Under the pieces are notes generated by a model. The model was not told where the DNA came from. It made no database searches and saw nothing but the letters and a program-made list of their open reading frames with translations. A DNA stretch of 64,000 nt, from the IMG/VR virus record IMGVR_UViG_3300021958_000028, positions 61,108 to 125,107 of that record; one strand, written 5' to 3'. Origin of the DNA: a virus. Lineage: Duplodnaviria > Caudoviricetes. Shown piece after piece: positions 5,070-63,972 of this stretch; positions within the stretch are counted from its first letter, which is position 1; every line of letters begins with the position of its first letter. Made by a program: the position numbers and the translations under genes.

Positions 5070-5321
5070 TTGGCCACATATCCGGTAAAACATAATGAGA
5101 CTGGTGAAACCAAAGACGTGAAGATGAGTGTTCATGATTGGGATCAGTGGAAGATTGACAATCCTGATTGGGAGAGATATTACACTCCAGACAATGCACC
5201 CAAACTTGGAGTAGAAATGGGTGACCCACTCAGTAAACTTTATACTAAACATCCAGGATGGAAGGATGTTATCTCCAAAGCGAAGCAACAACCAGGATCA
5301 ACCCTAAAACATTACGACTAA
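5070..5321 (+). CDS. Conserved small cyanophage protein upstream of phoH
   Basis: TTG start with GAGGAG RBS, AATAAATA late-promoter motif at 5034. Confidence 0.7.
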   Translation: MATYPVKHNETGETKDVKMSVHDWDQWKIDNPDWERYYTPDNAPKLGVEMGDPLSKLYTKHPGWKDVISKAKQQPGSTLKHYD

Positions 5322-5327
5322 TTAAGT

Positions 5328-39119: not shown

Positions 39120-41828
39120 ATGGCAAGACTAAAAAGCGGAAAAGTTTTAAATTCTGATGGGAATTTTATAACTTTAGAAGAAACACAAAGATGGCTTAAC
39201 AACCCAAGTTTAAATGGTCAGGTATTATCATCAGATACTGCTGGTAATCGTTTTTGGATTAACCCACCAGCAGGAGCTCAAGGTGGTCCAGGTGCTCAGG
39301 GTTCTACAGGTTCAACTGGTCCTCAAGGTCTTCAAGGACCTCAGGGGCAAGATGGACCTCAAGGTTTTCAAGGTGTTTCTGGAATAAGTGGAAGTCAAGG
39401 ATTCCAAGGTGTTCAAGGTTCTCAAGGTGCTGCTGGAACATCAGTAATCATTATTGGATCAGTTCCTGATGTTTATGTAAATCCACCCAACGATCCTCAA
39501 ATAACATTAAATGCAGCATTTCCTTCTGCAGTTACTTCAAATGCTGCAATTGATCAAGGATTGGGTGAATTGTGGGTTTATGATGGAGCAACTTGGAATA
39601 ATGTCGGACAAATTGTAGGCCCTACAGGACCTCAAGGAAATCAAGGAAATCAAGGATATCAGGGTACACAAGGATCTGTAGGACCTCAAGGTAATGTAGG
39701 TGCTCAAGGATTACAGGGGGTTCAAGGTTCTACAGGTTTCCAAGGTATATCTGGTGGAGCTGGATTTCAGGGAAATCAGGGTGAACAGGGTTCTGTTGGA
39801 TCACAAGGAGTTCAAGGTGCTCAGGGATCTCAAGGTCGTCAAGGTGTTCAGGGATCAGTTGGTGCCACAGGTCCAACGGGTCCTCAAGGGGTCCAAGGTT
39901 CTACAGGGTTAAGAGGTTTTCAAGGTTACCAAGGTCGTCAAGGGGCTCAGGGATCACAAGGTTTTCAAGGTTCTCAAGGTAATGATGGAACATCAGTAAG
40001 TATTATTGGCGCAGTTCCTGATGTCAATGTAAATCCACCAAATAATCCACAAACAACATTAAATACTGCTTTCCCATCAGCTACTGTAGGAAATGGCGTA
40101 ATTGATGATGCTACTGGTGATTTATGGGTTCTTAATTCACAATGGAATAATGTTGGCCAAATTGTAGGTCCACAAGGTTCACAGGGTATTCAAGGTGTTC
40201 AAGGTTCACAAGGAAATCAAGGAATACAAGGATCTCTAGGATCTCAAGGAGTTCCTGGAATACAAGGTAGTGTTGGTGCACAAGGAGCACAAGGTTCTAC
40301 CGGTACACAAGGACCACAAGGTTTCCAAGGAGTACAAGGTGCTCAGGGAGCGGGAGTACAAGGTGCAACTGGAGCAACTGGACCACAAGGTTTTCAAGGT
40401 TCTACAGGTGATGTTGGGGCAACTGGGCCCACTGGAGCAACTGGACCACAAGGTGTTCAAGGTTCTACGGGTACTGGCGGAGCAACTGGGTCCACTGGAC
40501 CAGCAGGACCACAAGGTTTCCAAGGAGTTCAAGGTGCTCAGGGATCACAAGGTCGTCAAGGTCGTCAAGGTTCTACAGGTACTGGTGGAGCAACAGGTCC
40601 AACTGGTGCTCAGGGATCTCAAGGTCGTCAAGGATCTCAAGGTCGTCAAGGATCTCAAGGTCGTCAAGGATCTCAAGGTCGTCAAGGATCACAGGGACAA
40701 GGTGGTACATCAGTCACCATTGTAGGATCAGTTCCATCCGTAACAACATCAAGTCCAAACACAACACTAACTTCTGATGACACTGGATTTTCTTGGTACC
40801 CTCCATCAACTGGTAATGGTGTAATTGCAACAGATACTGGTGATTTATGGGTCTACGATGGATCTGATTGGAATAATGTAGGTCAAATTGTAGGTCCCCA
40901 AGGTTTCCAAGGAGTTCAAGGTGCTCAGGGATCACAAGGTCGTCAAGGTTCTACAGGTACTGGTGGATCAACTGGACCAACTGGACCAACTGGTGCTCAG
41001 GGATCTCAAGGTCGTCAAGGATCTCAAGGTCGTCAAGGTTCTGCAGGTCTAACAGGTTCTACAGGTTCAACCGGTCCAACGGGTCCTCAAGGTTTACAAG
41101 GTCGTCAAGGATCTCAAGGTCGTCAAGGTTCTACAGGTTCTACAGGTTCTACAGGTTCAACCGGTCCAACAGGTCCTCAAGGTAACCAAGGTCGTCAAGG
41201 ATCTCAAGGTCGTCAAGGTTCTACAGGTCCAACAGGTCCAACAGGTCCTCAGGGCAACCAAGGAAGACAAGGTTCTCAAGGTCGTCAAGGTGCTGTAGGT
41301 GCTCAAGGTTCTACAGGTCCAACAGGTCCAACAGGTCCTCAGGGCAACCAAGGAAGACAAGGTTCTCAAGGTCGTCAAGGTTCTACAGGTCCAGCTGGAC
41401 CTTCTAATGTAATATCTGCATCGGCCACTACTACTAATTCAACATTTTATCCAGTATTTGTTGCTGGAACTGGTAATCGAACACCAAGTATTAGAACGTC
41501 TTCTGTTGCATTAAGTTTTAATGCTTCCTCTGGAACTTTATCAGCAACTAATTTTAATTCTGGTTCTGATGAGAGACTTAAAGAAAATGTGGAAACTATT
41601 AATAATGCACTTTCTACAATAGAAAAAATACGTGGTGTTAAATTTAGTTGGAAGTCAAGTGGTAATCAATCAATTGGTGTAATTGCACAAGAAATTGAAG
41701 AAATTTTACCAGAACTTGTTGAAGGTGATGATAATAAAACTGTAAACTATAGTGGAATTATTGGTGTTCTTGTTGAAGCTGTGAAGGAACTTTCTACAAG
41801 AGTAGAGGAATTAGAAAATGATAAATAA
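39120..41828 (+). CDS. Collagen-like tail fibre with C-terminal intramolecular chaperone (peptidase S74)
   Basis: Long Gly-X-Y tracts separated by three related GTSV...LWV...[10 protein letters not shown] domains; SDERLKEN...GVIAQE..V.Y..L.EAVKEL C-terminus. Confidence 0.9.
40614..40690 (+). repeat. 18 bp tandem repeat x4 (GSQGRQ) in the collagen gene
   Basis: GGATCTCAAGGTCGTCAA, four exact copies. Confidence 0.9.
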
Positions 41829-41902: not shown

Positions 41903-42490
41903 ATGGCTATTCAGATTTCAGGAACTACTGTTATTGACAACAGTAGGAATATCACTAATTTTGAATCTGTTTCTGGTAATGGAGTAGCTACTCAGGCAGA
42001 GGCCGAAGCAGGTACAAATAATGATCAAGTAATGACCCCATTAAGGGTCACACAAGCAATCGCAGCTGCAGGAGGCGGTATGGTAGACGACGACATTAAC
42101 TGGTCAGGGTGCAATGTAGGATGTGCCGTCAGAGGTGGCGGTAATGTATTCCGTAAAACTACAGGACTCATTTGGATTGTAGCACCATCAACAACACAAG
42201 TAGGTTCCACATGGCCTATGGGTTATTGTAATGGTGAGGGTGGTGCTACTCCAAATCAAGCCCAAAGAATCACTGGTCGTTCCGGGTGGTTTATTCCTGA
42301 TCTAGGAATGCTTCAATGTGGTTATGCATGTAGAACTTATTGGGACAGTTACTCCACGACCAGCTACTGGAGTTCTACTGAGTTCACTACCAGCACTGCG
42401 TACGTTGTGTTCTTTAATAGTGGCGGCGCGCTCGGCGGCAATAAGAGCGGCATCCGCTGTGTTCGTCCGTTTCGGGTCGTGTGCTATTGA
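41903..42490 (+). CDS. DGR target protein: putative fibre-tip adhesin with C-terminal C-type-lectin-like (Lcl/DUF1566-like) variable domain
   Basis: MAIQISGTTVIDNSRNI N-terminus, ATQAEAEAGT fibre motif, W.IP...L, YWSSTE...A..V.F..G...VRPFR. Confidence 0.88.
   Translation: MAIQISGTTVIDNSRNITNFESVSGNGVATQAEAEAGTNNDQVMTPLRVTQAIAAAGGGMVDDDINWSGCNVGCAVRGGGNVFRKTTGLIWIVAPSTTQVGSTWPMGYCNGEGGATPNQAQRITGRSGWFIPDLGMLQCGYACRTYWDSYSTTSYWSSTEFTTSTAYVVFFNSGGALGGNKSGIRCVRPFRVVCY
42353..42476 (+). repeat. DGR variable repeat (VR)
   Basis: 124 bp ungapped match to 43024-43147 with 26 mismatches, all at TR adenines. Confidence 0.95.
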
Positions 42491-43023: not shown

Positions 43024-43147
43024 TCCACGAACAACTACTGGAGTTCTACTGAGAACAATACCAACAATGCGTACAATGTGAACTTTAATAATGGCAACAC
43101 GAACAACAACAATAAGAACAACATCAACTGTGTTCGTCCGTTTCGGG
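43024..43147 (+). repeat. DGR template repeat (TR)
   Basis: Non-coding copy of VR with 18 AAC/AAT codons in the VR frame. Confidence 0.95.
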
Positions 43148-43158
43148 AGTGAGAAGTT

Positions 43159-44199
43159 ATGAATGACATCACATTTGAAGAAGTTGTAACAGCATATTAC
43201 GACTGCAGAAGAAATAAAAGAAATACATCACAACAATTAGAATTTGAGTTTCATCTAGAAAAAAATCTCTGGAAACTTTATGAAGAACTAAATCAAGAAA
43301 TTTTTATTCCAGAAGCACATAATTTTTTCATCATAACACATCCCAAACCAAGAGAAGTTTGGTGCTCAAATTTTAGAGATAGAATAGTTCATCATTTAAT
43401 TTATAATAGAACAAATTATATTGAGAGTGACTATATTGATAATACTTTTGCATGTTTAAGAGGAAAAGGAACTTTAAGATGTGCTCAAAAAGTACAAAAA
43501 ACTATGAGATCTTTATGGAAAGATAAAGATAATTACAAATTTCTTCATGTTGACATTGCAAACTTTTTTGTTTCCATTGATAGAGAAATTATTAAGAAGC
43601 AATTATATCCAAAAATAGAAAATGAAACTACAATAAAGTTAATAGAAATATTTTTAAATCAAAGTCCCACAGAAAACTATTATTATACTGGTGATCCAAA
43701 ACTTAAAGAATTAATACCTGATAGAAAATCATTATTTGGGAAATCTACTGGTCTTACTATTGGAAATTTGACATCTCAAATTTTTGCCAATCATTACTTA
43801 AATGAATTTGACTGGTACTGTAAAGAAAATATATCTCAATATTACTTTAGGTATATGGATGATTTATTATTTTTTATTCATAAAGATCAAAAAATATATC
43901 AAATTATTGATGATATTAATGATTATTTGGCAACTTTAAATATGACTTTAAATTCATCAAAAACAAAACATAATAAACTTGAGCATGGTGTGAATTTTGT
44001 TGGATACTTTATTAGACCTTTCTGCAAATATGTAAGAAATTCAACTAAACAGAGAGCAAAATTGGCAACAGAATGGCAATCAATTAATTCATATTATGGA
44101 CTCATGAGACAAGCAAACTGTTATAATTTAAGAAAAAAGATTGCTATTCAAAACAATATAAATATGATAAAATATGAAAAACTGAATCAATTAATATGA
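43159..44199 (+). CDS. DGR reverse transcriptase
   Basis: PKPREV, FRDRIVHH, DIANFF.SID, GLTIGNLTSQ (SQ motif of DGR RTs), RYMDD, NFVGY. Confidence 0.95.
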   Translation: MNDITFEEVVTAYYDCRRNKRNTSQQLEFEFHLEKNLWKLYEELNQEIFIPEAHNFFIITHPKPREVWCSNFRDRIVHHLIYNRTNYIESDYIDNTFACLRGKGTLRCAQKVQKTMRSLWKDKDNYKFLHVDIANFFVSIDREIIKKQLYPKIENETTIKLIEIFLNQSPTENYYYTGDPKLKELIPDRKSLFGKSTGLTIGNLTSQIFANHYLNEFDWYCKENISQYYFRYMDDLLFFIHKDQKIYQIIDDINDYLATLNMTLNSSKTKHNKLEHGVNFVGYFIRPFCKYVRNSTKQRAKLATEWQSINSYYGLMRQANCYNLRKKIAIQNNINMIKYEKLNQLI

Positions 44200-55186: not shown

Positions 55187-55214
55187 ACCAATTAAATAAG
55201 TGCCACAAGGAGGG

Positions 55215-55243
55215 TTGAAAGACCCTCTTTTTTATTGTATTAT
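55215..55243 (+). promoter_or_regulatory. Sigma70 promoter with stem-loop
   Basis: TTGAAA-17-TATTAT inside the GAGGGT/ACCCTC hairpin; AAGTGCCAC box upstream. Confidence 0.65.
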
Positions 55244-55289
55244 TGTTAGTAACCTCCAAAGTGTCCCAGTAGTGAATCCACACCACATT

Positions 55290-56171
55290 ATGACTCTCAA
55301 CACGCATTTGAACCACCCAGAAGATATGATCCTCACTGGTGACTTGGGTGTCATTAATGCACTTTATGGTGATGCATTCGTCAGCGTAAAAATAGATGGA
55401 AGCCCGGCTGTGGTTTGGGGCACTCACCCTGAGAATGGTGAGTTTTTCGTTTCGACAAAAAGTGCCTTTAACAAGAAGAAAATCAAGGTCTGTTATACCA
55501 AGAAAGATGTCATCCAACACTTTGGTCATCAACCAAATGTTGAAACTATTCTTATCAATTGTTTGAAGTATCTTCCTCGGACTGAAGGTGTCTACCAAGG
55601 AGATTTTCTGGGGACAGGAGGTAATACATCATACAAACCTAACACTATCGAATATGTTTTTGATGAGATTGTAACTGAAAATATCATCATTGCTCCTCAC
55701 ACATATTACACTGGTGATTGTCCTCTCTATGAGATGGAGGCTCATGCACTGGAGGGTGACCTTTGTGAGACTAATGACTGTAAGTTTGTTCAACCCTTTG
55801 TTGACCGTGTAAACTGTAACATTACCGCTCCAGTCATTGATACTGACAAATACACATTCCTCACAGAGAAAGAGGCTTGTCAGGCAAAGGTTGCCATCAA
55901 TGCTCTTATCAGGTCTGGACAGAAACTCCATGAGGTTGACCTGATTGACATCCTTGGTTCACTTCAACTTGCCAATCTTTACCTATTAGTTGTTGAGATG
56001 AAGGAAGAACTTATGGAAGACATGATTGTCTACAACTGCCCTAAGTCTTACATTGGTGGACTAAAGGTCAATCAAGAAGGATTTGTCATGTCCACAGAGT
56101 ATGGTATGATTAAACTCGTAGACCGTGAACAGTTCAGCTACGCCAATTTCGCACAGGGTAGATTTCAATGA
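55290..56171 (+). CDS. DUF6267-like conserved cyanophage protein
   Basis: NTHL.HPED.ILTGDL, VKIDGSPA.VWG, TKS.FNKK, QGDF, EGFV, KLVDR..FS.ANF; start moved to ATG 55290. Confidence 0.75.
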   Translation: MTLNTHLNHPEDMILTGDLGVINALYGDAFVSVKIDGSPAVVWGTHPENGEFFVSTKSAFNKKKIKVCYTKKDVIQHFGHQPNVETILINCLKYLPRTEGVYQGDFLGTGGNTSYKPNTIEYVFDEIVTENIIIAPHTYYTGDCPLYEMEAHALEGDLCETNDCKFVQPFVDRVNCNITAPVIDTDKYTFLTEKEACQAKVAINALIRSGQKLHEVDLIDILGSLQLANLYLLVVEMKEELMEDMIVYNCPKSYIGGLKVNQEGFVMSTEYGMIKLVDREQFSYANFAQGRFQ

Positions 56172-56479
56172 GTGATGAACAACTTCAACAAATGGAACCG
56201 GTAGAACTTGAACGGTTCTTGGAGGAATGTGCCGATAAGGCCAAAGAATATGGTGTCTCATTTGAATACTACATGGCGGAGTTCGCATGACTGAAACCCA
56301 AAAGATCACCAGTGCATTGTCACAAATTGACAATCTAACTATTCTTCTTGAGGATAATGAATGGAAAACCTTTCTTTATTCACATCTCATTCCACTCAAG
56401 TATGAGCTACAGAGACAACAAGGTCTCTTGACTAATCAGACTAATTCCACTAACATTGAAGAGTAATCAAACCAAACCA

Positions 56480-56713
56480 ATGAAGACCCTGTTTATTGTT
56501 GACCACTTTGTCCCATTCCCACAATCAGAGTATGGTGGAGTTTGGAATGTTATTGCCGATGATGAAGATGAGTGTTTTGATTTGATTACATCTGAAGATG
56601 ACAGTAATTATTTTGAGTATTATGGTGTTTTGAGAGAAAATATTAGTAAGGCATATAAATATACTATTACATCCGAGGCAGAACCAGGAATTGTTACCTC
56701 ATTCCTTACTTAA
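56480..56713 (+). CDS. Hypothetical protein
   Basis: VD.FVPFP.SEYGG.WNVIA. Confidence 0.65.
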   Translation: MKTLFIVDHFVPFPQSEYGGVWNVIADDEDECFDLITSEDDSNYFEYYGVLRENISKAYKYTITSEAEPGIVTSFLT

Positions 56714-56873
56714 ACTCATATGTCAAACTATTCAACAGAGTCTCTTCTGATTGATCTTCAACGTACGATAAAACATCTTGAAGACAATATCAAAGAGAAG
56801 AACAAAGAGATTGAAAATCTTAAAGGTCTAATTTTCAAACTCCAAGACAACATTCAAAAAAGTGACTAACTAA

Positions 56874-57173
56874 ATGATTGAACTTGAACTCCCCAATGAT
56901 TTTATTCATGAAGCCCCAACAGGTTATTCATATTCAGTTAGTGAATTCAAAACCAATGTCTTATCAATTTGGTTAAATCATCACAAAGAATATATCTACA
57001 CATCAGAACCTGTTAAGACTATCTGGGGGTTCGTGCGGTTCACAAAGAAAGGTCACAAATACTATTCACCAATCAACTCTAAAAAAGTTGGTAAGGAAAT
57101 AGATATTGATGAAACACGCCCATTCACTTCAATGAGACTTCACCTCAATCCTCTAGAGGCGGCATTTTTCTGA
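56874..57173 (+). CDS. Conserved cyanophage hypothetical protein
   Basis: TIWGF, PINSKK.G, T.PFTSM...LNPLEAAF. Confidence 0.7.
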   Translation: MIELELPNDFIHEAPTGYSYSVSEFKTNVLSIWLNHHKEYIYTSEPVKTIWGFVRFTKKGHKYYSPINSKKVGKEIDIDETRPFTSMRLHLNPLEAAFF

Positions 57174-57442
57174 TGGAAACCCGTAAAGATCGTATGGCCT
57201 ACCCATATATCCCACAGGTTGATGATTACGTCATCTGGAGACGTACTACTGGACAGATTGATAAAGGATGGGTATATTTTGTTGATAAGGAATATATTAC
57301 TATTGAGACTGGTGTAAAGGATAAACCCAACTGTGAATATACAAGAGAAGAGAAACATAAGAAGATTCACACTTTGGTAGTATGTCATCCTTGTTTCTGG
57401 AATCAGTTAGAATATGTCAAGAACAGAAGAGGTGATGACTAA
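57173..57442 (+). CDS. Hypothetical protein
   Basis: Y.PQVDDYVIW, GWVYF...YITIE. Confidence 0.7.
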   Translation: METRKDRMAYPYIPQVDDYVIWRRTTGQIDKGWVYFVDKEYITIETGVKDKPNCEYTREEKHKKIHTLVVCHPCFWNQLEYVKNRRGDD

Positions 57443-57514
57443 CAATACTGAATTACTAACCAATTATTGTTAGTAACCTCTAAAGTGTCCCTGTAGTGTA
57501 ACCAATCAATCATC

Positions 57515-57727
57515 ATGACGACTCCAATCGTAACCCAACTCTCAGAAATTCGTGACCAAGTTCGTAAACAGGATTACAAATGGACTAACGACCAACGTCA
57601 ACGTTATGCCACCCTTATCGATCAACGTCACGCACAAATTGCACAATGGCGTGAGGAAGGTCGTGTCTGGGTAGGCCCTTCTAACATTGGTAAGGATAAG
57701 CCACAGGAGCAAGAATCAGACGATTGA
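57515..57727 (+). CDS. Hypothetical early protein
   Basis: Follows the repeat copy at 57465. Confidence 0.7.
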   Translation: MTTPIVTQLSEIRDQVRKQDYKWTNDQRQRYATLIDQRHAQIAQWREEGRVWVGPSNIGKDKPQEQESDD

Positions 57728-57745
57728 TAAACTGTCTATTACCTC

Positions 57746-57774
57746 TTGACTTTCACCAAGTCAGGGGGTATTAT
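57746..57774 (+). promoter_or_regulatory. Sigma70 promoter with stem-loop
   Basis: TTGACT-17-TATTAT within the TGACTT/AAGTCA hairpin; GACGAT-N6-ACTGTC upstream. Confidence 0.7.
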
Positions 57775-57825
57775 TGTTAGTAACCTCTAAAGTGTCCCTT
57801 TAGTATGACCACCACCACACCTGAA

Positions 57826-59010
57826 ATGATTACTCTTCGGCCTCACCAGCAACGTGGACTTGACGCACTTGAAAAATACTCCAAAGGACAATGCATTGTC
57901 CCGACTGGAGGCGGTAAGACTCTGATTGCAATCATGGATGCAAAGAGACAACTAGAGACTAAACCTTCTACCATTGTTGTTGTCTGTCCTCGTATTCTTC
58001 TTGCAGAACAACTCTGTAGTGAGTTTCTTGAGGTTATTGATACTTCTACTGTTCACACTATTCATGTTCACAGTGGTGAAACTACTCACTTTAGTTCCAC
58101 CAGACCAAAAGATATTCACCTATTCACCAACGTAGCACGTAGTGAAGGTGAGAGTGTCCTTATTTTCACCACATATCACTCTCTACATCGCGTACAAGAG
58201 GCAGACATTGAAGTCAATACCATTTACTTTGATGAGGCACACAACAGTGTTCAACGCCACTTCTTCCCTCCTACAGAGTTCTTCTCTAACGAAGCAGATC
58301 GTTCATACTTCTTTACTGCAACCCGTAAGACTTCTGTCACTATCAATAAGCCTGGTATGAATGATCGTGAGGTTTATGGTGACATTATTTGTCGTGTTTC
58401 TGCACCTGAACTTGTTCAAGGTGGATACATTGCTCCACCTAAAATTCATGTGAAAGAATTTGACGTTCATAACAATACCAAACTGATTACCTGTGACACT
58501 GATTGTGAACATCTCATCTCCACTGTTGATGAAGTTCAGATGAAGAAACTTCTGGTCTGTGTGAAGACTTCCAAACAACTGGTAAATGTCATCACTCATA
58601 CCGATTTCACTACTCAGTTGTCTGATCGTGGTTATTCTTACCTTTATATTACCGCAAAAACTGGTGCAGTTGTTGATGGTAAGAAGGTCAATCGTGAGGA
58701 GTTCTTCAACGTCCTAAACACCTGGGGTAAAGATCCTGATAAAAAGTTCGTTGTTCTTCACCGTTCTATTCTGTCAGAGGGTATCTCTGTCAACCGTCTG
58801 GATTGTGTTATCTTCCTTCGTAATATGGACACCATTGAATTAACTCAGTCGATCGGTCGTGTTCTTCGTACCTGTCCTGATAAGGCCTTCGGTCTATGCG
58901 TCGTACCGATTTACAGCCGAGTGGGTATTGCCACAGAAAGAGCTCTTCAAAATGTTGTTGATGCCGTGTTTGAGAAGGGTGAGTTGTTAGATAGTGTAGT
59001 GCGGAAGTAA
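57826..59010 (+). CDS. SF2 DEAH-box helicase (ResIII/UvsW-like)
   Basis: LRPHQ, PTGGGKT, FDEAH, FTAT, LSEGI, QSIGRVLR; probable start ATG 57826 (57805 also in frame). Confidence 0.88.
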   Translation: MITLRPHQQRGLDALEKYSKGQCIVPTGGGKTLIAIMDAKRQLETKPSTIVVVCPRILLAEQLCSEFLEVIDTSTVHTIHVHSGETTHFSSTRPKDIHLFTNVARSEGESVLIFTTYHSLHRVQEADIEVNTIYFDEAHNSVQRHFFPPTEFFSNEADRSYFFTATRKTSVTINKPGMNDREVYGDIICRVSAPELVQGGYIAPPKIHVKEFDVHNNTKLITCDTDCEHLISTVDEVQMKKLLVCVKTSKQLVNVITHTDFTTQLSDRGYSYLYITAKTGAVVDGKKVNREEFFNVLNTWGKDPDKKFVVLHRSILSEGISVNRLDCVIFLRNMDTIELTQSIGRVLRTCPDKAFGLCVVPIYSRVGIATERALQNVVDAVFEKGELLDSVVRK

Positions 59011-59163
59011 TTATGGACATTAAAAGAGAACTGACTAATAGTTTATTACAGGCGTCATTGTGTAACACAAGAGAAGAAGCAAGAAATATTATCAGGAAGG
59101 CTGATCAGGCATCAATAAAGTTGTCAGGATTACCCTATGGATTCCCTATGAACATAAAAACAG

Positions 59164-59373
59164 ATGAAACTAACTGAACACAGAAGTGATATCCTAGATG
59201 CCAAAGTTCGGGAACTAGGGTTCACTGTAGGTAAAGATGATGAGTATGCAGCCATACCTTTGACAGGTAGTGAGACCAAGTTGGTTATCATTCACAAGGG
59301 TAATATCCTGAAGACTTGTCGTAACCGAAAGGCAGCACTTACCTTTATCAAGAAACATAGTAAAACTAAATAA
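59164..59373 (+). CDS. Hypothetical protein
   Basis: 69 aa ORF. Confidence 0.6.
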   Translation: MKLTEHRSDILDAKVRELGFTVGKDDEYAAIPLTGSETKLVIIHKGNILKTCRNRKAALTFIKKHSKTK

Positions 59374-59394
59374 GACATAGGATAAAGAAAGAAG

Positions 59395-60027
59395 ATGCAG
59401 ACCTTTCAACAATTTCAAGAAAAATTGACAGAAGTCTATGACCCTGAAGTACAAGGAAGGTCACAGATTCGTAAGACGGGTGAAGGTGGAAGAGTAGGAA
59501 GAGACCGCAGAAAGAGTGAACCAGAACGCCGTAGAATGAAGGCCACTGGTGGTGGTAAGACTGCACCAGTTAGTTACAAGGACCGAAAGGACATTGGTGA
59601 TCAGAAACAGGCAGCAAGTAGAGTTCAACAACCAACCAAAGAACGTGGCTCTGCAGAAGTCAAACAGTCATATGCTGATAAAGTCAAGGCAGAAAGAAAG
59701 GCCGCAGCATTGGCAAGACGCCAGGCCAAATCAGGTGGTGGAGAGGTAACTAAAACTAAAACATCTTCTAAAGACGCTGAGAAACAAGCATCCAAACTTC
59801 TGACCAAGAAGACACCATTGAAGAAAGTTGATCCTGATTATAAACCAGCCAAGGCGTCTGGACTTACTCGTAAAGAGAGAATGTCCCAGCAACGTAAGGG
59901 TGAGACCATGTTACGTGGTATATTTAAAGACCAAGAAACTGACAAATACCGCAAGGCAACGGGCAAGAATCCCGATGCCAAAGGTAGAACCAAGATTATG
60001 GGTAGAGTTCATGCAAGAATGAAATAA
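59395..60027 (+). CDS. Basic low-complexity protein, internal-head-protein-like
   Basis: MQTFQQF.E N-terminus, Lys/Arg-rich; CTAAATA upstream. Confidence 0.6.
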   Translation: MQTFQQFQEKLTEVYDPEVQGRSQIRKTGEGGRVGRDRRKSEPERRRMKATGGGKTAPVSYKDRKDIGDQKQAASRVQQPTKERGSAEVKQSYADKVKAERKAAALARRQAKSGGGEVTKTKTSSKDAEKQASKLLTKKTPLKKVDPDYKPAKASGLTRKERMSQQRKGETMLRGIFKDQETDKYRKATGKNPDAKGRTKIMGRVHARMK

Positions 60028-60042
60028 AAATATAATCAAAGT

Positions 60043-60100
60043 AACCAGTTTTTGAACTGTCACAAACCCTCTTGACTTTTTGTCAGAAGGGTTTTATAGT
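60043..60100 (+). promoter_or_regulatory. Sigma70 promoter with palindromic box and stem-loop
   Basis: ACCAGT-N6-ACTGTC, TTGACT(60072)-17-TATAGT(60095). Confidence 0.75.
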
Positions 60101-60106
60101 ATGCAT

Positions 60107-60298
60107 ATGAACTACCAACAACTGACAGATACAATCTATCCAGACTTTGTTGAATACACTCTGGATAAACATTCAAAAGAAATAAAAGATTTGTACAGGG
60201 GTTTCATTGATGAATATCTCAATGAAAGTCTTGGTGAGTTGAATCCAAAGACACGTAATAAACTGACAAAAGAGTTACTTAATCGACTTATTAGTTGA
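60107..60298 (+). CDS. Hypothetical early protein
   Basis: MNYQQLTDTIYP...; start placed after the promoter. Confidence 0.55.
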   Translation: MNYQQLTDTIYPDFVEYTLDKHSKEIKDLYRGFIDEYLNESLGELNPKTRNKLTKELLNRLIS

Positions 60299-60353
60299 TA
60301 TTATTGTTAGTAACCTCTAAAGTGTCCCTGTAGTGTAACCACACAAACAACTC

Positions 60354-60701
60354 ATGACTTTCACCGCTCCACAATACAAAACTGAATTTCTGACTGAATC
60401 TCTTGTTGAACAACTAAACATCCGTTTTAAGGTTGATTCTGTTGAGTCTGGTCACAATCACACATATCTCTTCAAGTATGATGTGGCCAAGAAATACATC
60501 AAGGTCTGGCGTCATGATGTATACAATGGTGAGGTTCGTGAGGGTCGTTCAATCTTCCTCTTTGTTGATAAAGAGACTGGAGCTGTGTACAAACCTGCAT
60601 CATGTAAGGCACCAGCCAAAGGTATCAGGTTCTACATTGATTTCCTGGTTGATCATCCTGAGCTTGTTGACCAATACGGTTCCTTCCTTTATCTTCGTTG
60701 A
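60354..60701 (+). CDS. Conserved phage hypothetical protein
   Basis: KKYIKV, FVDK.TG.VYKPAS.KAPAKG.R, YGSFLYLR. Confidence 0.75.
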   Translation: MTFTAPQYKTEFLTESLVEQLNIRFKVDSVESGHNHTYLFKYDVAKKYIKVWRHDVYNGEVREGRSIFLFVDKETGAVYKPASCKAPAKGIRFYIDFLVDHPELVDQYGSFLYLR

Positions 60702-60751
60702 TATTGTTAGTAACCTCTAAAGTGTCCCTGTAGTGTAACCACTCAATTATT

Positions 60752-61330
60752 ATGACCACCACTTATCAACAATTTGTTGATGATCTTCATTCTATCCCTG
60801 ATAAAGTTTTTATCGATTTTCTAATTGAATGTAAGAAAATTTATATGAGATATTCTGGAGTAGGACTTTATAATTTTGTCAAAGGTCATAAGGTTGAACA
60901 TGAATTTGTGAAATATGTTAAATCATATATTGACTTGAGAGCCAGTAAAAAACAATCACCAGATGATCCCGATTGTGTTTATGGTGAGAATTATCTCCCA
61001 GATATTAAAACAAAGCAAGATGGTCTTAAGACAAAGAAAAATGGCGAATTTTATGCAAATCCATGGATCTTAAAGAATCCCTATTCAAATAAAGATGTTT
61101 TTACAACTAGGGCAGACTCATATATCTTAATTGATCCCACTTGTAGTAAAATTGCGGTCGTTGATTCAGAATATTTCTCTGGATGTTTTAATAATCAAAA
61201 CTCAACTACTTGTTATTTCAATGTATGTCGAGATCAAGTTGACATGATTTTTGATGGTACCGGCAAAATTCCTTATGTCGAACCAATTGAACCCATCAGT
61301 GAGTATGATTTAATGGAGTCAATTCCATGA
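60752..61330 (+). CDS. Hypothetical protein, possible PD-(D/E)XK nuclease
   Basis: E...PD(C)...DIKT arrangement; flanked by repeats. Confidence 0.5.
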   Translation: MTTTYQQFVDDLHSIPDKVFIDFLIECKKIYMRYSGVGLYNFVKGHKVEHEFVKYVKSYIDLRASKKQSPDDPDCVYGENYLPDIKTKQDGLKTKKNGEFYANPWILKNPYSNKDVFTTRADSYILIDPTCSKIAVVDSEYFSGCFNNQNSTTCYFNVCRDQVDMIFDGTGKIPYVEPIEPISEYDLMESIP

Positions 61331-61383
61331 ATGTTATTGTTAGTAACCTCTAAAGTGTCCCTGTAGTATAACCATCCAATCAA

Positions 61384-61587
61384 ATGCCACTTTCTGAATC
61401 CACTGTCTCACGTATTGTCGATGCACTAAAAGATGACATCATCGAACACATTTATACAAATGAGAAATACAATGAGGTTATGCGTCAATGTATTGAAGAG
61501 GCATTAGATGCTAAAATGGGTGAGATGGATGAGGATCTATATTTTGACCTTGGTATGTGTTTATACGAACGAATTGAATTGAAATAA
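61384..61587 (+). CDS. Hypothetical early protein
   Basis: Flanked by repeats. Confidence 0.7.
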   Translation: MPLSESTVSRIVDALKDDIIEHIYTNEKYNEVMRQCIEEALDAKMGEMDEDLYFDLGMCLYERIELK

Positions 61588-61640
61588 AGTTAGTAACCTC
61601 TAAACTGTCTCTATAGTATAACCACACGCCGAGCAATCAA

Positions 61641-61808
61641 ATGAGCATCTATGTAAGATTCGATTCAGTTGAATGTGATGAGCCACAATTCATCGGTCCG
61701 TTTCAAACTGAAGAGGCTGCTGATGATTATGCAGACTATCAGAACACAGGTCTTTCACTAAATGGTGTTCCTGGTCATGTTGCATCCTATTCTGTATCTG
61801 GTTGTTGA
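61641..61808 (+). CDS. Small hypothetical protein (55 aa)
   Basis: MSIYVRFDS...IGPFQTEEAADDYA; fills the interval between two repeats. Confidence 0.65.
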   Translation: MSIYVRFDSVECDEPQFIGPFQTEEAADDYADYQNTGLSLNGVPGHVASYSVSGC

Positions 61809-61866
61809 CATTATTGTTAGTAACCTCTAAACTGTCTCTATAGTATAACCACTCTCCCCCAACACC

Positions 61867-62058
61867 ATGAGCAACAATATCAAACAAGAATCTGTTGATC
61901 TAATGGCAGAACAACTTTATCAACAGATGGTACAACATGTTGATAATGACAACTATGGTAATTCTGACGCCATCCATTCTGAATGGGTTGTTGATGGTCA
62001 AGATCCCGAAGATGGTGAATATGAGTTCATGTTCATTGACTATCTCTCACAAGTTTAA
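61867..62058 (+). CDS. Hypothetical early protein
   Basis: Follows the repeat at 61812. Confidence 0.65.
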   Translation: MSNNIKQESVDLMAEQLYQQMVQHVDNDNYGNSDAIHSEWVVDGQDPEDGEYEFMFIDYLSQV

Positions 62059-62082
62059 TTTACATCACACACAAACTAAATC

Positions 62083-62625
62083 ATGAAAAAGTTTCTCACC
62101 TCTGTTATTGCAGGCGCTTCTGTTATTTTCACACCAGGATCAGCCATTGCTGGTAACACTTATGAAGACCATGTAGATCTCTTTAATGCACTCAACGAAG
62201 TTGGTATTATTACTAGTATCAACTCTAAACTTCATTGTAGGTCTGGCGTAGATGGCAAGTATAATACAAGGTCAGGTATGTTGATCGTATGCCAAGACAA
62301 TGGCGTTCCTGGTGGCCCTCAAGTAACCTGGACTTTAAATGACTTAGACACACTTAGACATGAATCTCATCATGTTGTTCAGGACTGTAATGAGGGAACA
62401 ATTGCAGATGGGTTAACGGATAACCTTTTTTATGAAGAACAAGAGTTAATTGAATTTATCTCAAAGTCATCACTTACTACAGAGCAATTAAAAAATCTGA
62501 TGGAGTCATTAAAAAATGATGGACTGAGTTACACCTCAATCATGATTGAAGTTGAGGCATACATTGTAGCAAAAGATATTGAGGCATCAAGTATTGCTAA
62601 CAAAGTTAGGGAGTTCTGTTCCTGA
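62083..62625 (+). CDS. Secreted HExxH metallopeptidase-like protein
   Basis: Signal peptide MKKFL...AIA, LRHESHHVVQDC, E.EAY. Confidence 0.7.
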   Translation: MKKFLTSVIAGASVIFTPGSAIAGNTYEDHVDLFNALNEVGIITSINSKLHCRSGVDGKYNTRSGMLIVCQDNGVPGGPQVTWTLNDLDTLRHESHHVVQDCNEGTIADGLTDNLFYEEQELIEFISKSSLTTEQLKNLMESLKNDGLSYTSIMIEVEAYIVAKDIEASSIANKVREFCS

Positions 62626-62631
62626 TGATTG

Positions 62632-62742
62632 ATGGGCATATGTAACATGTTTTGGTGTGGTTACCTTGTTACATTGTAAGACCCATGTAGTAGAGGCATC
62701 AATCACATAATTGTGGTGGTTACAGTGATTGAGTAAGGCCTC
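62632..62742. ncRNA. Candidate twin-hairpin RNA
   Basis: Two hairpins with different stem sequences but a shared GTGGTTAC loop and GTAAG bulge. Confidence 0.5.
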
Positions 62743-62805
62743 ATTGTTGGATAATAAAGTTAGTAACCTCTAAAGTGTCCCTATAGTATGACTAACACCA
62801 AAACC

Positions 62806-63072
62806 ATGTTTCCACACCTCCACATTTCAGAGTCCAACCTTGGACCTCACACATCAACATTTTTCAAAGTATCATCACAACACAAAGATGAGTGGAGTAA
62901 TGGTATTTTTCACAACTCACCTTATGGTATCTTTCATCTTCATTCTGAGAAAGGTGTTTATAAGTTAGAACTCACATCTGGTGGGTTAGGAACTCCCAAG
63001 TTCCGCAAGTGTAAGTGTCAAGACGAACTCACTGCACTCTCTAAGATTCGCAAATGGATGGATAAGTTCTGA
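62806..63072 (+). CDS. Hypothetical early protein
   Basis: W.NGIFHNSPY, KFRK.K; probable start 62806 (62788 also in frame). Confidence 0.65.
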   Translation: MFPHLHISESNLGPHTSTFFKVSSQHKDEWSNGIFHNSPYGIFHLHSEKGVYKLELTSGGLGTPKFRKCKCQDELTALSKIRKWMDKF

Positions 63073-63126
63073 ATAGATTGTTAGTAACCTCTAAAGTGTC
63101 CCTGTAGTGTAACCGCAACAAGCATT

Positions 63127-63324
63127 ATGACATTTCTCAACTGGGTTCAAGAATCAATTGGTTGTAAAGTAGAAGACGAAAAAACTGGAATGGTTCATAC
63201 CATTACCGGTGGTAAGTTGTTAGCTGATTCACCTATGTGGCCTATGATTCAACTCACAGATGAGAATGGAGTTGTAAGATATGCAACTCTTGATAGGTTT
63301 GAAGAACTGATCTCTGTGGGATAA
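63127..63324 (+). CDS. Hypothetical early protein
   Basis: Follows the repeat at 63076. Confidence 0.65.
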   Translation: MTFLNWVQESIGCKVEDEKTGMVHTITGGKLLADSPMWPMIQLTDENGVVRYATLDRFEELISVG

Positions 63325-63351
63325 GTTTTGAATTGATAAGATAACACTTTC

Positions 63352-63376
63352 ACCCTCTCTTTGAGAGGGTTTTTTT
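63352..63376 (+). terminator. Rho-independent terminator
   Basis: ACCCTCTC-ttt-GAGAGGGT plus T run. Confidence 0.8.
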
Positions 63377-63592
63377 ATGCGTAGAGACCATCACCCATCA
63401 GACAGAACAAACCTACTACTCAAGACCCCAGTGATACCAAGGGCTCTCACGATATCAAAAACTCTTTTTTCCATATCGGGGGTTTTCAGGTGTGATAGGT
63501 CGTTTGACCCGATAAAATTATGGAAAAATCAGTTTATGACACTAACTGGTTCAGGGTATTATTGTTAGTAACCTCTAAAGTGTCCCTATGGT

Positions 63593-63766
63593 ATGAATAC
63601 TTCTAATCCTTACATTGAAACGCTAACCCAAAAGGGATACTCTGTTAAAGAGTGTCAAACACCATCAAAGACTAAAAAGTCTTTCCCATGTGTGATTCAT
63701 GGAAGAACATTCCAAACCGAAGAAGAGTACCACGAAGCTCTTCATGAGTTCCTGAATGGTAACTAA
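63593..63766 (+). CDS. Small hypothetical protein (57 aa)
   Basis: MNTSNPYIETL...; fills the interval between the repeats at 63560 and 63767. Confidence 0.6.
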   Translation: MNTSNPYIETLTQKGYSVKECQTPSKTKKSFPCVIHGRTFQTEEEYHEALHEFLNGN

Positions 63767-63819
63767 CATTGTTAGTAACCTCCAAAGTGTCCCTGTAGTA
63801 TGAGAACATCTTCAAACTA

Positions 63820-63972
63820 ATGCGTTACACAAACCCCTCTGGTCAAGAGTACATTTTTCCTTATTCAATCTCCCGTGAAGAAGCACTACAACGTATGGAA
63901 GAATATGAAAAGAAAGTAGAACAAGATGAACGTTCTGGACAACAATTATTCGATGATATGTTCGGAGGTTGA
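63820..63972 (+). CDS. Small hypothetical protein (50 aa)
   Basis: MRYTNPSGQEYIFP...; follows the repeat at 63767. Confidence 0.6.
   Translation: MRYTNPSGQEYIFPYSISREEALQRMEEYEKKVEQDERSGQQLFDDMFGG

Follow-up and report, generated by a model that had tools for sequence, protein, structure and literature searches.

T4-like cyanophages are major mortality agents of marine Synechococcus, and the timing of their early genes is poorly understood; to our knowledge, they have neither the MotA/AsiA of T4 nor circuits of the RegA type. The locus described here raises the question of what a pair of hairpins does that stands between a stop codon and a putative early promoter in the early gene array of such a phage. 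The window analysed comprises 64,000 nucleotides, the last 64 kb of a 125-kb IMG/VR contig from a T4-like cyanomyovirus whose nearest named relatives are Synechococcus phages of Kyanoviridae; positions are those of the window unless another record is named. A preliminary description had seen at 62632-62742 a twin-hairpin non-coding element with loops antisense to the leaders that follow a 39-bp repeat. The structured non-coding element and its enriched complementarity have held up, whereas pairing with transcript 5′ ends and a guide function on DNA have not.

From 55.2 kb to the contig end, the window consists of an array of small plus-strand genes without assigned function, most of which are headed by a 39-bp repeat found in 12 co-oriented copies (55241-63824). 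The repeat closes with a -10-like hexamer (TATAGT/TGTAGT); next come GTAACCAC and an A/C-rich leader, 10-20 nt long, that lacks a Shine-Dalgarno sequence. The same repeat class occurs in S-B05 (9 copies in 14 kb, with the consensus ..TTACTCACCTC.AAA.GTC..CTATAGTGTAACCAC). Its form and position suggest a promoter, and no minus-strand copies of it were found. True terminator hairpins precede two of the repeats, at 55207-55230 (before the 55241 repeat) and at 57740-57770 (before the 57772 repeat); most cassette junctions have no predicted terminator according to a terminator scan. Metagenome contigs break and rejoin at the repeats. Also embedded in the array is a 401-aa superfamily-2 helicase (ResIII/DEAD/Helicase_C; 57805-59010), the leader of which, GACCACCACCACACC, contains 8-9 nt complements of both hairpin loops.

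The hairpins follow an early gene of 180 aa without assigned function (phrog_16003; 62083-62625, plus strand), whose stop codon precedes the first hairpin by 6 nt and thereby places the pair in the 3′ UTR of that gene. The nearest upstream copy of the repeat lies at 61812-61850 (plus strand), and since the scan predicts no terminator between it and the hairpins, transcripts from this promoter should include them. On the other side lies the next plus-strand copy (62755-62795, with the -10 TATAGT at 62782-62787), the core of which begins at 62759, about 15 nt past the second hairpin. It is followed by a plus-strand cassette gene matching phrog_3308 (62806-63072), and because the PHROG profile, which covers residues 7-94, begins at residue 7, the true start is probably the ATG at 62806 and not the mechanical ATG at 62788 that abuts the -10. 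The first canonical intrinsic terminator downstream of the hairpins is found at 63352-63370 (plus strand). One sequencing run, guessed to be RNA, covers 63111-63394 only.

The first hairpin (unit 1, type B; 62632-62687, plus strand) has an outer stem of ATGGG (62632-62636) and CCCAT (62682-62686), an inner stem of ATGTAACA (62640-62647) and TGTTACAT (62667-62674), a 19-nt loop, UGUUUUGGUGUGGUUACCU, and a 3′ internal loop, UGUAAGA. The second (unit 2, type A; 62692-62744, plus strand) has an outer stem of GAGGC (62693-62697) and GCCTC (62738-62742), an inner stem of TCAATCAC (62699-62706) and GTGATTGA (62725-62732), written as RNA UCAAUCAC/GUGAUUGA, an 18-nt loop, AUAAUUGUGGUGGUUACA, and a 3′ internal loop, GUAAG. 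In both, the loop contains the octamer GTGGTTAC (62657-62664 and 62716-62723, plus strand), and the 3′ internal loop contains GTAAG (62676-62680 and 62733-62737, plus strand). On the plus strand of the window the octamer has two occurrences only, namely these loops. A base-by-base check agreed throughout with the coordinates, stems and loops of the preliminary description, including the shared octamer, the loop sizes of 19 and 18 nt and the 3′ GTAAG bulge. Both hairpins are copies of one module. In its consensus, the internal loop A(U)/(U)RUAAG separates a short outer stem, whose GGC/RCC core is invariant, from an inner stem of 6-11 bp, and the latter carries a loop of 17-20 nt whose 3′ end is the invariant GUGGUUAY. 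A covariance model built from 13 units (R1) finds the two units in the 64 kb at 74.2 and 58.2 bits (E about 1e-18 and 1e-13), the next best match reaching 14 bits.

The case for selection on this structure comes from comparison. Across 41 distinct units, 11 of the 14 stem pairs show compensatory changes, and 87.5% of the cells are paired, versus 33-46% when the partners are slid against each other; none of 500 shuffles equalled the observed value. The third pair of the outer stem covaries (G-C in 28 units, U-A in 7, A-U in 6), and in the inner stem compensatory changes occur at all 8 modelled pairs. The internal covariation proposed from the two units alone is thus borne out by the family, whose diversity is modest (roughly 12 distinct stem types). 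While the stems are free to vary, the internal loop is invariant and the loop octamer is constant except for a C>U change at its last base. In BLAST comparisons, S-B05, RN05-S and RB11-B match unit 1 over 49 nt with about 90% identity, and the type B unit keeps about 90% identity between the window and S-B05 despite unrelated flanking genes. S-B05 also carries a twin, with other stems and the same loops and internal loops, and the loop type of unit 2 recurs with other stems at four further loci (L075, L112, L258 and L195).

The suggestion that the element belongs to no described family likewise stands, given that Rfam holds no match. Specifically, cmscan with Rfam 15 at E up to 10 returned nothing overlapping 62632-62744 when applied to 62000-63400, and at E up to 1 nothing at the units of five other loci with variant units; the families without a match include C4 antisense RNA, 6S, mini-ykkC, glnA/Downstream-peptide, manA, wcaG and PhotoRC. 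ARAGORN finds no tRNA or tmRNA gene in the whole window. A coding micro-ORF (with a CGGY/WCGY peptide) was rejected on account of indels that are not multiples of three and in-frame stops: the units of S-B05 and of L020 differ by 1-nt indels (ATGGGCATTGAGTGT versus ATGGGCATGAGTGT), unit 2 of the window reads ATG TAG in the frame that would yield CGGY, and the minus-strand frame is not conserved, the L010 type stopping after 4 codons. A pseudoknot between UUAC of the loop and GUAA of the internal loop fails on geometry, as the two segments flank an 8-nt 3′ arm with linkers of 0-2 nt, and two G>A changes in the internal loop are uncompensated. A closing helix around both hairpins, which appears in the minimum free energy fold, was discarded because it is not conserved.

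Folding energy adds little to this. The plus-strand pair (141 nt) has a stability z-score of 0.08 and single units range from -0.3 to -2.8; since these energies are ordinary, the case for the element is comparative, from covariation, and not energetic. The minus strand scores better (-1.98 for the pair, -4.2 and -1.2 for single units), and the hints as to the functional strand point both ways. In favour of the plus strand are the co-orientation of the element with the genes, an internal G.U in the inner stem of L195, and substitutions (one A>G, four independent C>U) by which a G.U would be kept in a possible apical helix (UAAUU/GGUUA or GGUG/UACC), which is predicted on the plus strand only. 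In favour of the minus strand, the C.A beside the internal loop in the outer stem of 14 of the 41 units is a G.U there. Neither set of hints is decisive. Taken together, the element is very probably selected, structured and non-coding, and forms a new sequence family restricted to one cyanomyovirus lineage.

The distribution of the module delimits that lineage. One to three tandem units are present in the Synechococcus phages S-B05, RN05-S and RB11-B, all isolated on Synechococcus sp. MW02, and in at least about 70 uncultured marine or estuarine contigs. Pattern scans and R1 together identified about 37 IMG/VR contigs with the module, and many metagenome contigs are among the matches listed, giving at least 41 distinct unit sequences overall. 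The 125-kb contig, the complete 208-kb genome of S-B05 and the 206-kb genome of RN05-S each have one locus with two units, and one further locus (L258) has three in tandem. A close relative of the window (L228, metagenome contig WLWG01004713.1, with units at 2571-2628 and 5213-5325 on the minus strand) combines the same twin with a lone third unit, which lies 2.6 kb further downstream, behind a gene that ends in ..VSASTR; the phage of the window may also have a third unit, as its contig ends 1.26 kb past the twin. Twins always pair one type B loop (..UGUUUUGGUGUGGUUACCU) with one type A loop (..AAUU..GUGGUGGUUACA), the A unit coming first in S-B05-like loci and the B unit in window-like ones. 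Neither Syn9, ACG-2014f, S-B43 and SynMITS9220M01 nor any of 185,579 prokaryote genomes (one per species) has the module. Host origin or mimicry was rejected, because the pattern matches among prokaryotes reach 28 bits at most and none is cyanobacterial, against at least 48 bits for real units. S-B43, with at least five promoter copies and no unit, is a relative that has the repeats and lacks the element, a situation that the preliminary description had held against its own reading. This promoter class therefore exists without the element, which is accessory and not part of the basic promoter mechanism.

Around the element, spacing is kept while the genes change. At 15 of 15 loci it points the same way as the genes; it begins 3-4 nt past the stop codon in 10 of the 15 (the gap is 6 nt in the window and three close relatives, 13 nt in L075 and 25 nt in L094) and ends 15-17 nt before the core of the early-promoter repeat in 13. 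The upstream gene belongs to at least five unrelated kinds, and the downstream gene varies too, often being the 65-aa gene found at 63127-63324 of the window. The phrog_3308 cassette (62806-63072) is missing in the close relatives L017, L056 and L100 and is an extra cassette inserted in the window. Such variation of neighbours around a constant element indicates a module that is independent of them and stays in the early region while cassettes are exchanged. There is also one metagenome contig, a single and weak case, that joins 61853 to 62755, so that two genes and the hairpins are deleted between promoter repeats. At two loci the setting differs: in L075 the hairpins end the operon and face a convergent small gene, where the window has the terminator at 63352-63370, and in L094 there is one unit only, after which come CTTTTT and the next start codon. 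A convergent ORF of 27 hydrophobic aa (MEKRVFDIVRALGITGVLSSRFVLSDG; 63391-63474, minus strand) is conserved in L075 and L228, and its stop codon in L075 lies inside the outer stem of the second hairpin.

This arrangement recalls the promoter-early stem-loop (PeSL) cassettes documented in T4-type phages (Arbiol et al. 2010, PMC2839356; Comeau et al. 2014, PMC4122927). Common to both are the hyperplastic early region of a T4-like myovirus, the order of small ORF, stem-loop and repeated early promoter, and junctions at which cassettes are gained and lost, so that neighbours differ between relatives and contigs break or join at repeats. The position agrees in detail (stop codon at 62625, hairpins at 62632-62744, repeat core from 62759), and the gap of 15-17 nt between hairpins and promoter core is kept in 12 other loci. 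PeSL stem-loops, however, are short, terminator-like and present at many junctions, whereas the terminator scan flags 55207, 57740 and 63352 and not the hairpins, and while the promoter is repeated, the hairpin module stands at one or two loci per genome. Also unlike PeSL stem-loops, the element has a two-tier stem, an internal loop that is conserved and loops of 17-20 nt whose sequence is invariant, and it lacks a U-run. In ACG-2014f (L133; KJ019098.1, 47034-60295), the repeated early module is instead composed of GTGGCACA, a G+C-rich hairpin, TGCTATACT and an A/C-rich leader, a difference suggesting that each cyanomyovirus lineage has its own PeSL sequence.

The loops are related in sequence to the early promoter: base for base, their octamer complements GTAACCAC, the consensus that directly follows the -10. 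In the 64 kb, GTAACCAC occurs twice on the plus strand, both times in a promoter (60335-60342, directly 3′ of the -10 of the 60302 repeat, and 60735-60742), and its reverse complement twice, in the two hairpin loops; near copies follow most of the other repeats. This promoter octamer lies within the consensus of the window (11 copies), of S-B05 (9 copies) and of the promoters beside the element in other contigs, and an exact 8-mer coincidence between two short conserved features would be expected by chance at an estimated order of 0.001-0.005. The leader matches reported earlier are all in place: GTAACCACAC at 60335, ACACCAAAAC at 62795-62804, which complements loop 1 over 10 nt in its 5′ half, and, behind the 60702 repeat, TGTAACCAC..CAATTAT, which matches loop 2 over 9 + 7 nt. 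In relatives that share these loops, the cassette concerned is absent or the leaders are different.

Duplex energies were computed between the loops and segments running from the end of the -10 to the AUG (11 promoter-proximal segments in the window). For window loop 1 the mean is -13.0 kcal/mol when positions -6 to +2 are included and -8.3 when the first 7 nt past the -10 are left off, the background being -6.8 (sd 2.7); for window loop 2 the corresponding values are -11.8, -7.1 and -5.6 (sd 2.6), for S-B05 loop A -11.2, -7.2 and -6.9 (sd 2.9), and for S-B05 loop B -11.4, -7.5 and -7.1 (sd 2.8). Complementarity to the sequence just after the 39-bp repeats, as first proposed, is thus enriched in duplex energy in both phages. 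About half of the loop matches of at least 9 nt fall in promoter-proximal sequence, which makes up roughly 0.5% of the DNA; genome-wide, long loop matches are no more numerous than for shuffled loops. With the transcript start placed by sigma-70 geometry (7 nt after the -10, at the C-A position), the energy advantage is gone in four of four loops. That the element pairs with the common 5′ ends of the cassette transcripts, as proposed, then no longer follows: a target at promoter positions -6 to +2 can be reached only in read-through RNAs, which hold the whole promoter sequence, or in DNA. Read-through RNAs are plausible, because most junctions have no predicted terminator. Covariation between loops and leaders, also expected at the outset, is not seen, since loops and promoter octamer are both invariant, and nothing speaks for the two-loop guide on repeat DNA.

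Several other resemblances of the locus lead elsewhere. An accessory element of a diversity-generating retroelement (DGR) was rejected because S-B05 and RN05-S carry the hairpins and have no reverse transcriptase; none was found in S-B43 or ACG-2014f either. The window itself has an RVT_1 gene (43348-44007, 61 bits) adjoining a pair of direct repeats (42353-42476 and 43024-43147; 124 nt, 79% identity), an arrangement consistent with a DGR, and at 39263-41408 it has dense repeats with a 9-nt period (families D1 and D2, up to 58 copies) that constitute a collagen-like Gly-X-Y coding region. A resemblance to integron attC sites (GTAAGRC beside GTTRRRY) was set aside, as position 3 is an A and the cassettes bring their own promoters. 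Finally, GGTTACCTTGTTAC in unit 1 (62659-62672, plus strand) coincides with the first 14 nt of the universal 16S primer 1492R and would thus pair with 16S rRNA at about 1497-1510. The match is limited to type B units whose stem has GTTAC, type A units matching over 6-7 nt, and it is probably fortuitous.

The explanation that we prefer, tentatively and as a possibility short of a probable one, is a lineage-specific conserved RNA module that pairs through its loops with read-through early RNAs bearing GUAACCAC, in the logic of c4 and CI. The twin hairpin would be transcribed from the plus strand as a 3′ UTR or intercistronic part of early cassette RNAs in an S-B05-like T4-type cyanophage, and would fill the stem-loop slot of a PeSL-type junction as a sequence-specific recognition element and not as a plain terminator. 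Each unit would display the invariant loop GUGGUUAY. As most cassettes have no terminator, read-through early RNAs would contain the full promoter sequence, with GUAACCAC lying 10-20 nt upstream of start codons that lack a Shine-Dalgarno sequence, and the loops (GUGGUUAC) could base-pair, in cis or in trans, with these internal copies. Such pairing may mark or mask the initiation regions of internal cistrons, so that their translation would be repressed or their processing guided; the RUAAG internal loop might be a site of processing or protein contact. This model accommodates the 11 of 14 compensatory pairs together with stems that vary around an invariant loop octamer and internal loop, the duplex energies, which for promoter-proximal segments beat the background by more than 2 sd in each of the two phages, and the order of stop codon, hairpins and early promoter, with co-orientation and no terminator after the 61812 promoter. 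It is harder to square with a sigma-70 +1 start, which would leave the octamer target out of promoter-initiated mRNAs, with the lack of covariation between the invariant loops and the promoter octamer, and with S-B43, which uses the promoter class and does not have the element. Moreover, the adjacent downstream promoter (62755) lacks GTAACCAC, only 2-3 loops would face at least 12 targets per genome, the conservation of the RUAAG internal loop is left unexplained, some complementarity between G/U-rich loops and A/C-rich leaders is expected from composition alone, and on the minus strand the outer-stem C.A seen in 14 of 41 units would become a G.U wobble. To the broader idea that the loops recognise the invariant core of the early promoter, be it in read-through RNAs or as melted promoter DNA, we can give little credence.

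Two alternatives share with the antisense loop model a role for the element in RNA. It might be a protein-recognition module, acting as a decoy (sponge) or as a cis site, in which an RNA-binding protein reads the GUGGUUAY loop and the RUAAG internal loop; the partner would be a phage or host nuclease, a chaperone or a ribosomal or translation factor, tandem copies would raise avidity, and the match to the promoter octamer would be incidental or due to shared descent. Two separate unpaired motifs that are invariant between variable stems suit this idea, as do a copy number of 1 to 3 in tandem with a second locus in L228, like that of multi-hairpin sponge RNAs, the interchangeable order of type A and type B units, and the restriction to only one or two loci per genome, which is gene-like rather than punctuation. 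A candidate partner is lacking, since the neighbouring genes are variable and of unassigned function, and the exact complementarity of 8-9 nt to the promoter consensus goes unexplained; we consider this explanation rather doubtful. That the element is simply a specialised PeSL stem-loop is unlikely. As a cis-acting 3′-end element it would stop or pause read-through, protect the upstream mRNA against 3′ exonucleases and insulate the next promoter, and it does occupy the slot held by true terminators before other repeats (55207-55230, 57740-57770), in an architecture that is documented in T4-type phages (PMC2839356, PMC4122927); the hairpins that end the operon in L075 and the single unit followed by CTTTTT in L094 fit as well. 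Nevertheless, the element is not terminator-like, with A/U-rich stems, loops of 17-20 nt, no U-run in most copies and average stability. It is also found at one or two junctions per genome, with more than 10 junctions doing without it, and neither termination nor protection needs an invariant loop or internal-loop sequence.

The remaining two place the function in DNA or on the other strand. Covariation fits RNA and single-stranded DNA alike, and the hairpins could form while the DNA is replicated, recombined or injected. A DNA enzyme might then recognise them, be it for priming, in connection with an origin, or as a hot spot of recombination through which cassettes are shuffled. The site is nearly unique in each genome and lies in a region of cassette exchange, with contig ends and joints at the repeats, and its loops contain GTT, the recognition triplet of T4-type primase. 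We nonetheless judge this improbable: loops of 17-20 nt make cruciform extrusion unlikely, G.U-compatible substitutions are present, neither iterons nor an AT-rich unwinding element lie nearby, and the element is absent from related phages with the same replication machinery. Very improbable, in our view, is a minus-strand mimic of leader and promoter, in which an antisense RNA or the bottom DNA strand would show GUAACCAC, an A/C-rich tract and AUG, and this copy of an early leader would titrate its reader (RNA polymerase, sigma factor or ribosomes). Read on that strand, the loops give GUAACCACACCAAAACAUG and UGUAACCACCACAAUUAUG, close to real promoter-leader-AUG strings, the z-scores are better and the outer-stem C.A becomes G.U. 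Against this, there is no conserved minus-strand promoter (the one consensus match, at 62702-62673, lies in a variable stem), the promoter repeat is confined to the plus strand, as are all genes here, the internal G.U of L195 would turn into an A.C mismatch, and the minus-strand ORF is not conserved.

Among known systems, the closest parallels to the antisense loop model are c4 of P1/P7 and CI of P4, which are co-transcribed phage antisense RNAs. By analogy, the element would be a small structured RNA within the operon that it regulates, as in c4 (Rfam RF01695) and CI, with exposed loops complementary to repeated sites near downstream translation starts of the same transcripts. It differs from c4 in having no match to the Rfam C4 family, in its tandem, near-identical modules and in a target that lies within a promoter consensus. 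The guanidine-II (mini-ykkC) riboswitch also consists of two similar hairpins with covarying stems, conserved loops and a variable linker, and single hairpins occur in both; its loops, however, are ACGR tetraloops, whereas the element has loops of 17-20 nt, an extra internal loop and no Rfam match, and guanidine-II is found in the 5′ UTR while the element is in a 3′ UTR upstream of a promoter. Candidate structured RNAs have been catalogued from IMG/VR, of which 10,006 are unnamed (Fremin et al. 2023, PMC10690425), and they are likewise covariation-supported intergenic motifs on uncultured phage contigs from the same database. The absence of the element from described families refers to Rfam 15, those 10,006 candidates being outside that comparison.

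What the locus offers, on the strength of its sequence, is a testable candidate regulator: a conserved structured RNA at a single locus in an early cassette array, with loops that complement the early-promoter core, and moreover one for which phage and host are in culture (S-B05 or RN05-S on Synechococcus MW02). Should it prove to be no more than a specialised 3′-end element, it would still be a new covariation-supported RNA motif, and PeSL-type junctions may in that case, too, be able to carry functional RNA cargo. If recognition of the promoter core is true in its read-through RNA version, the element would be a RegA-like, RNA-based global switch for dozens of early cassettes without Shine-Dalgarno sequences; if it is true in its promoter-DNA version, it would amount to RNA-directed promoter control. 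Either version would be a regulatory principle undescribed in T4-type phages.
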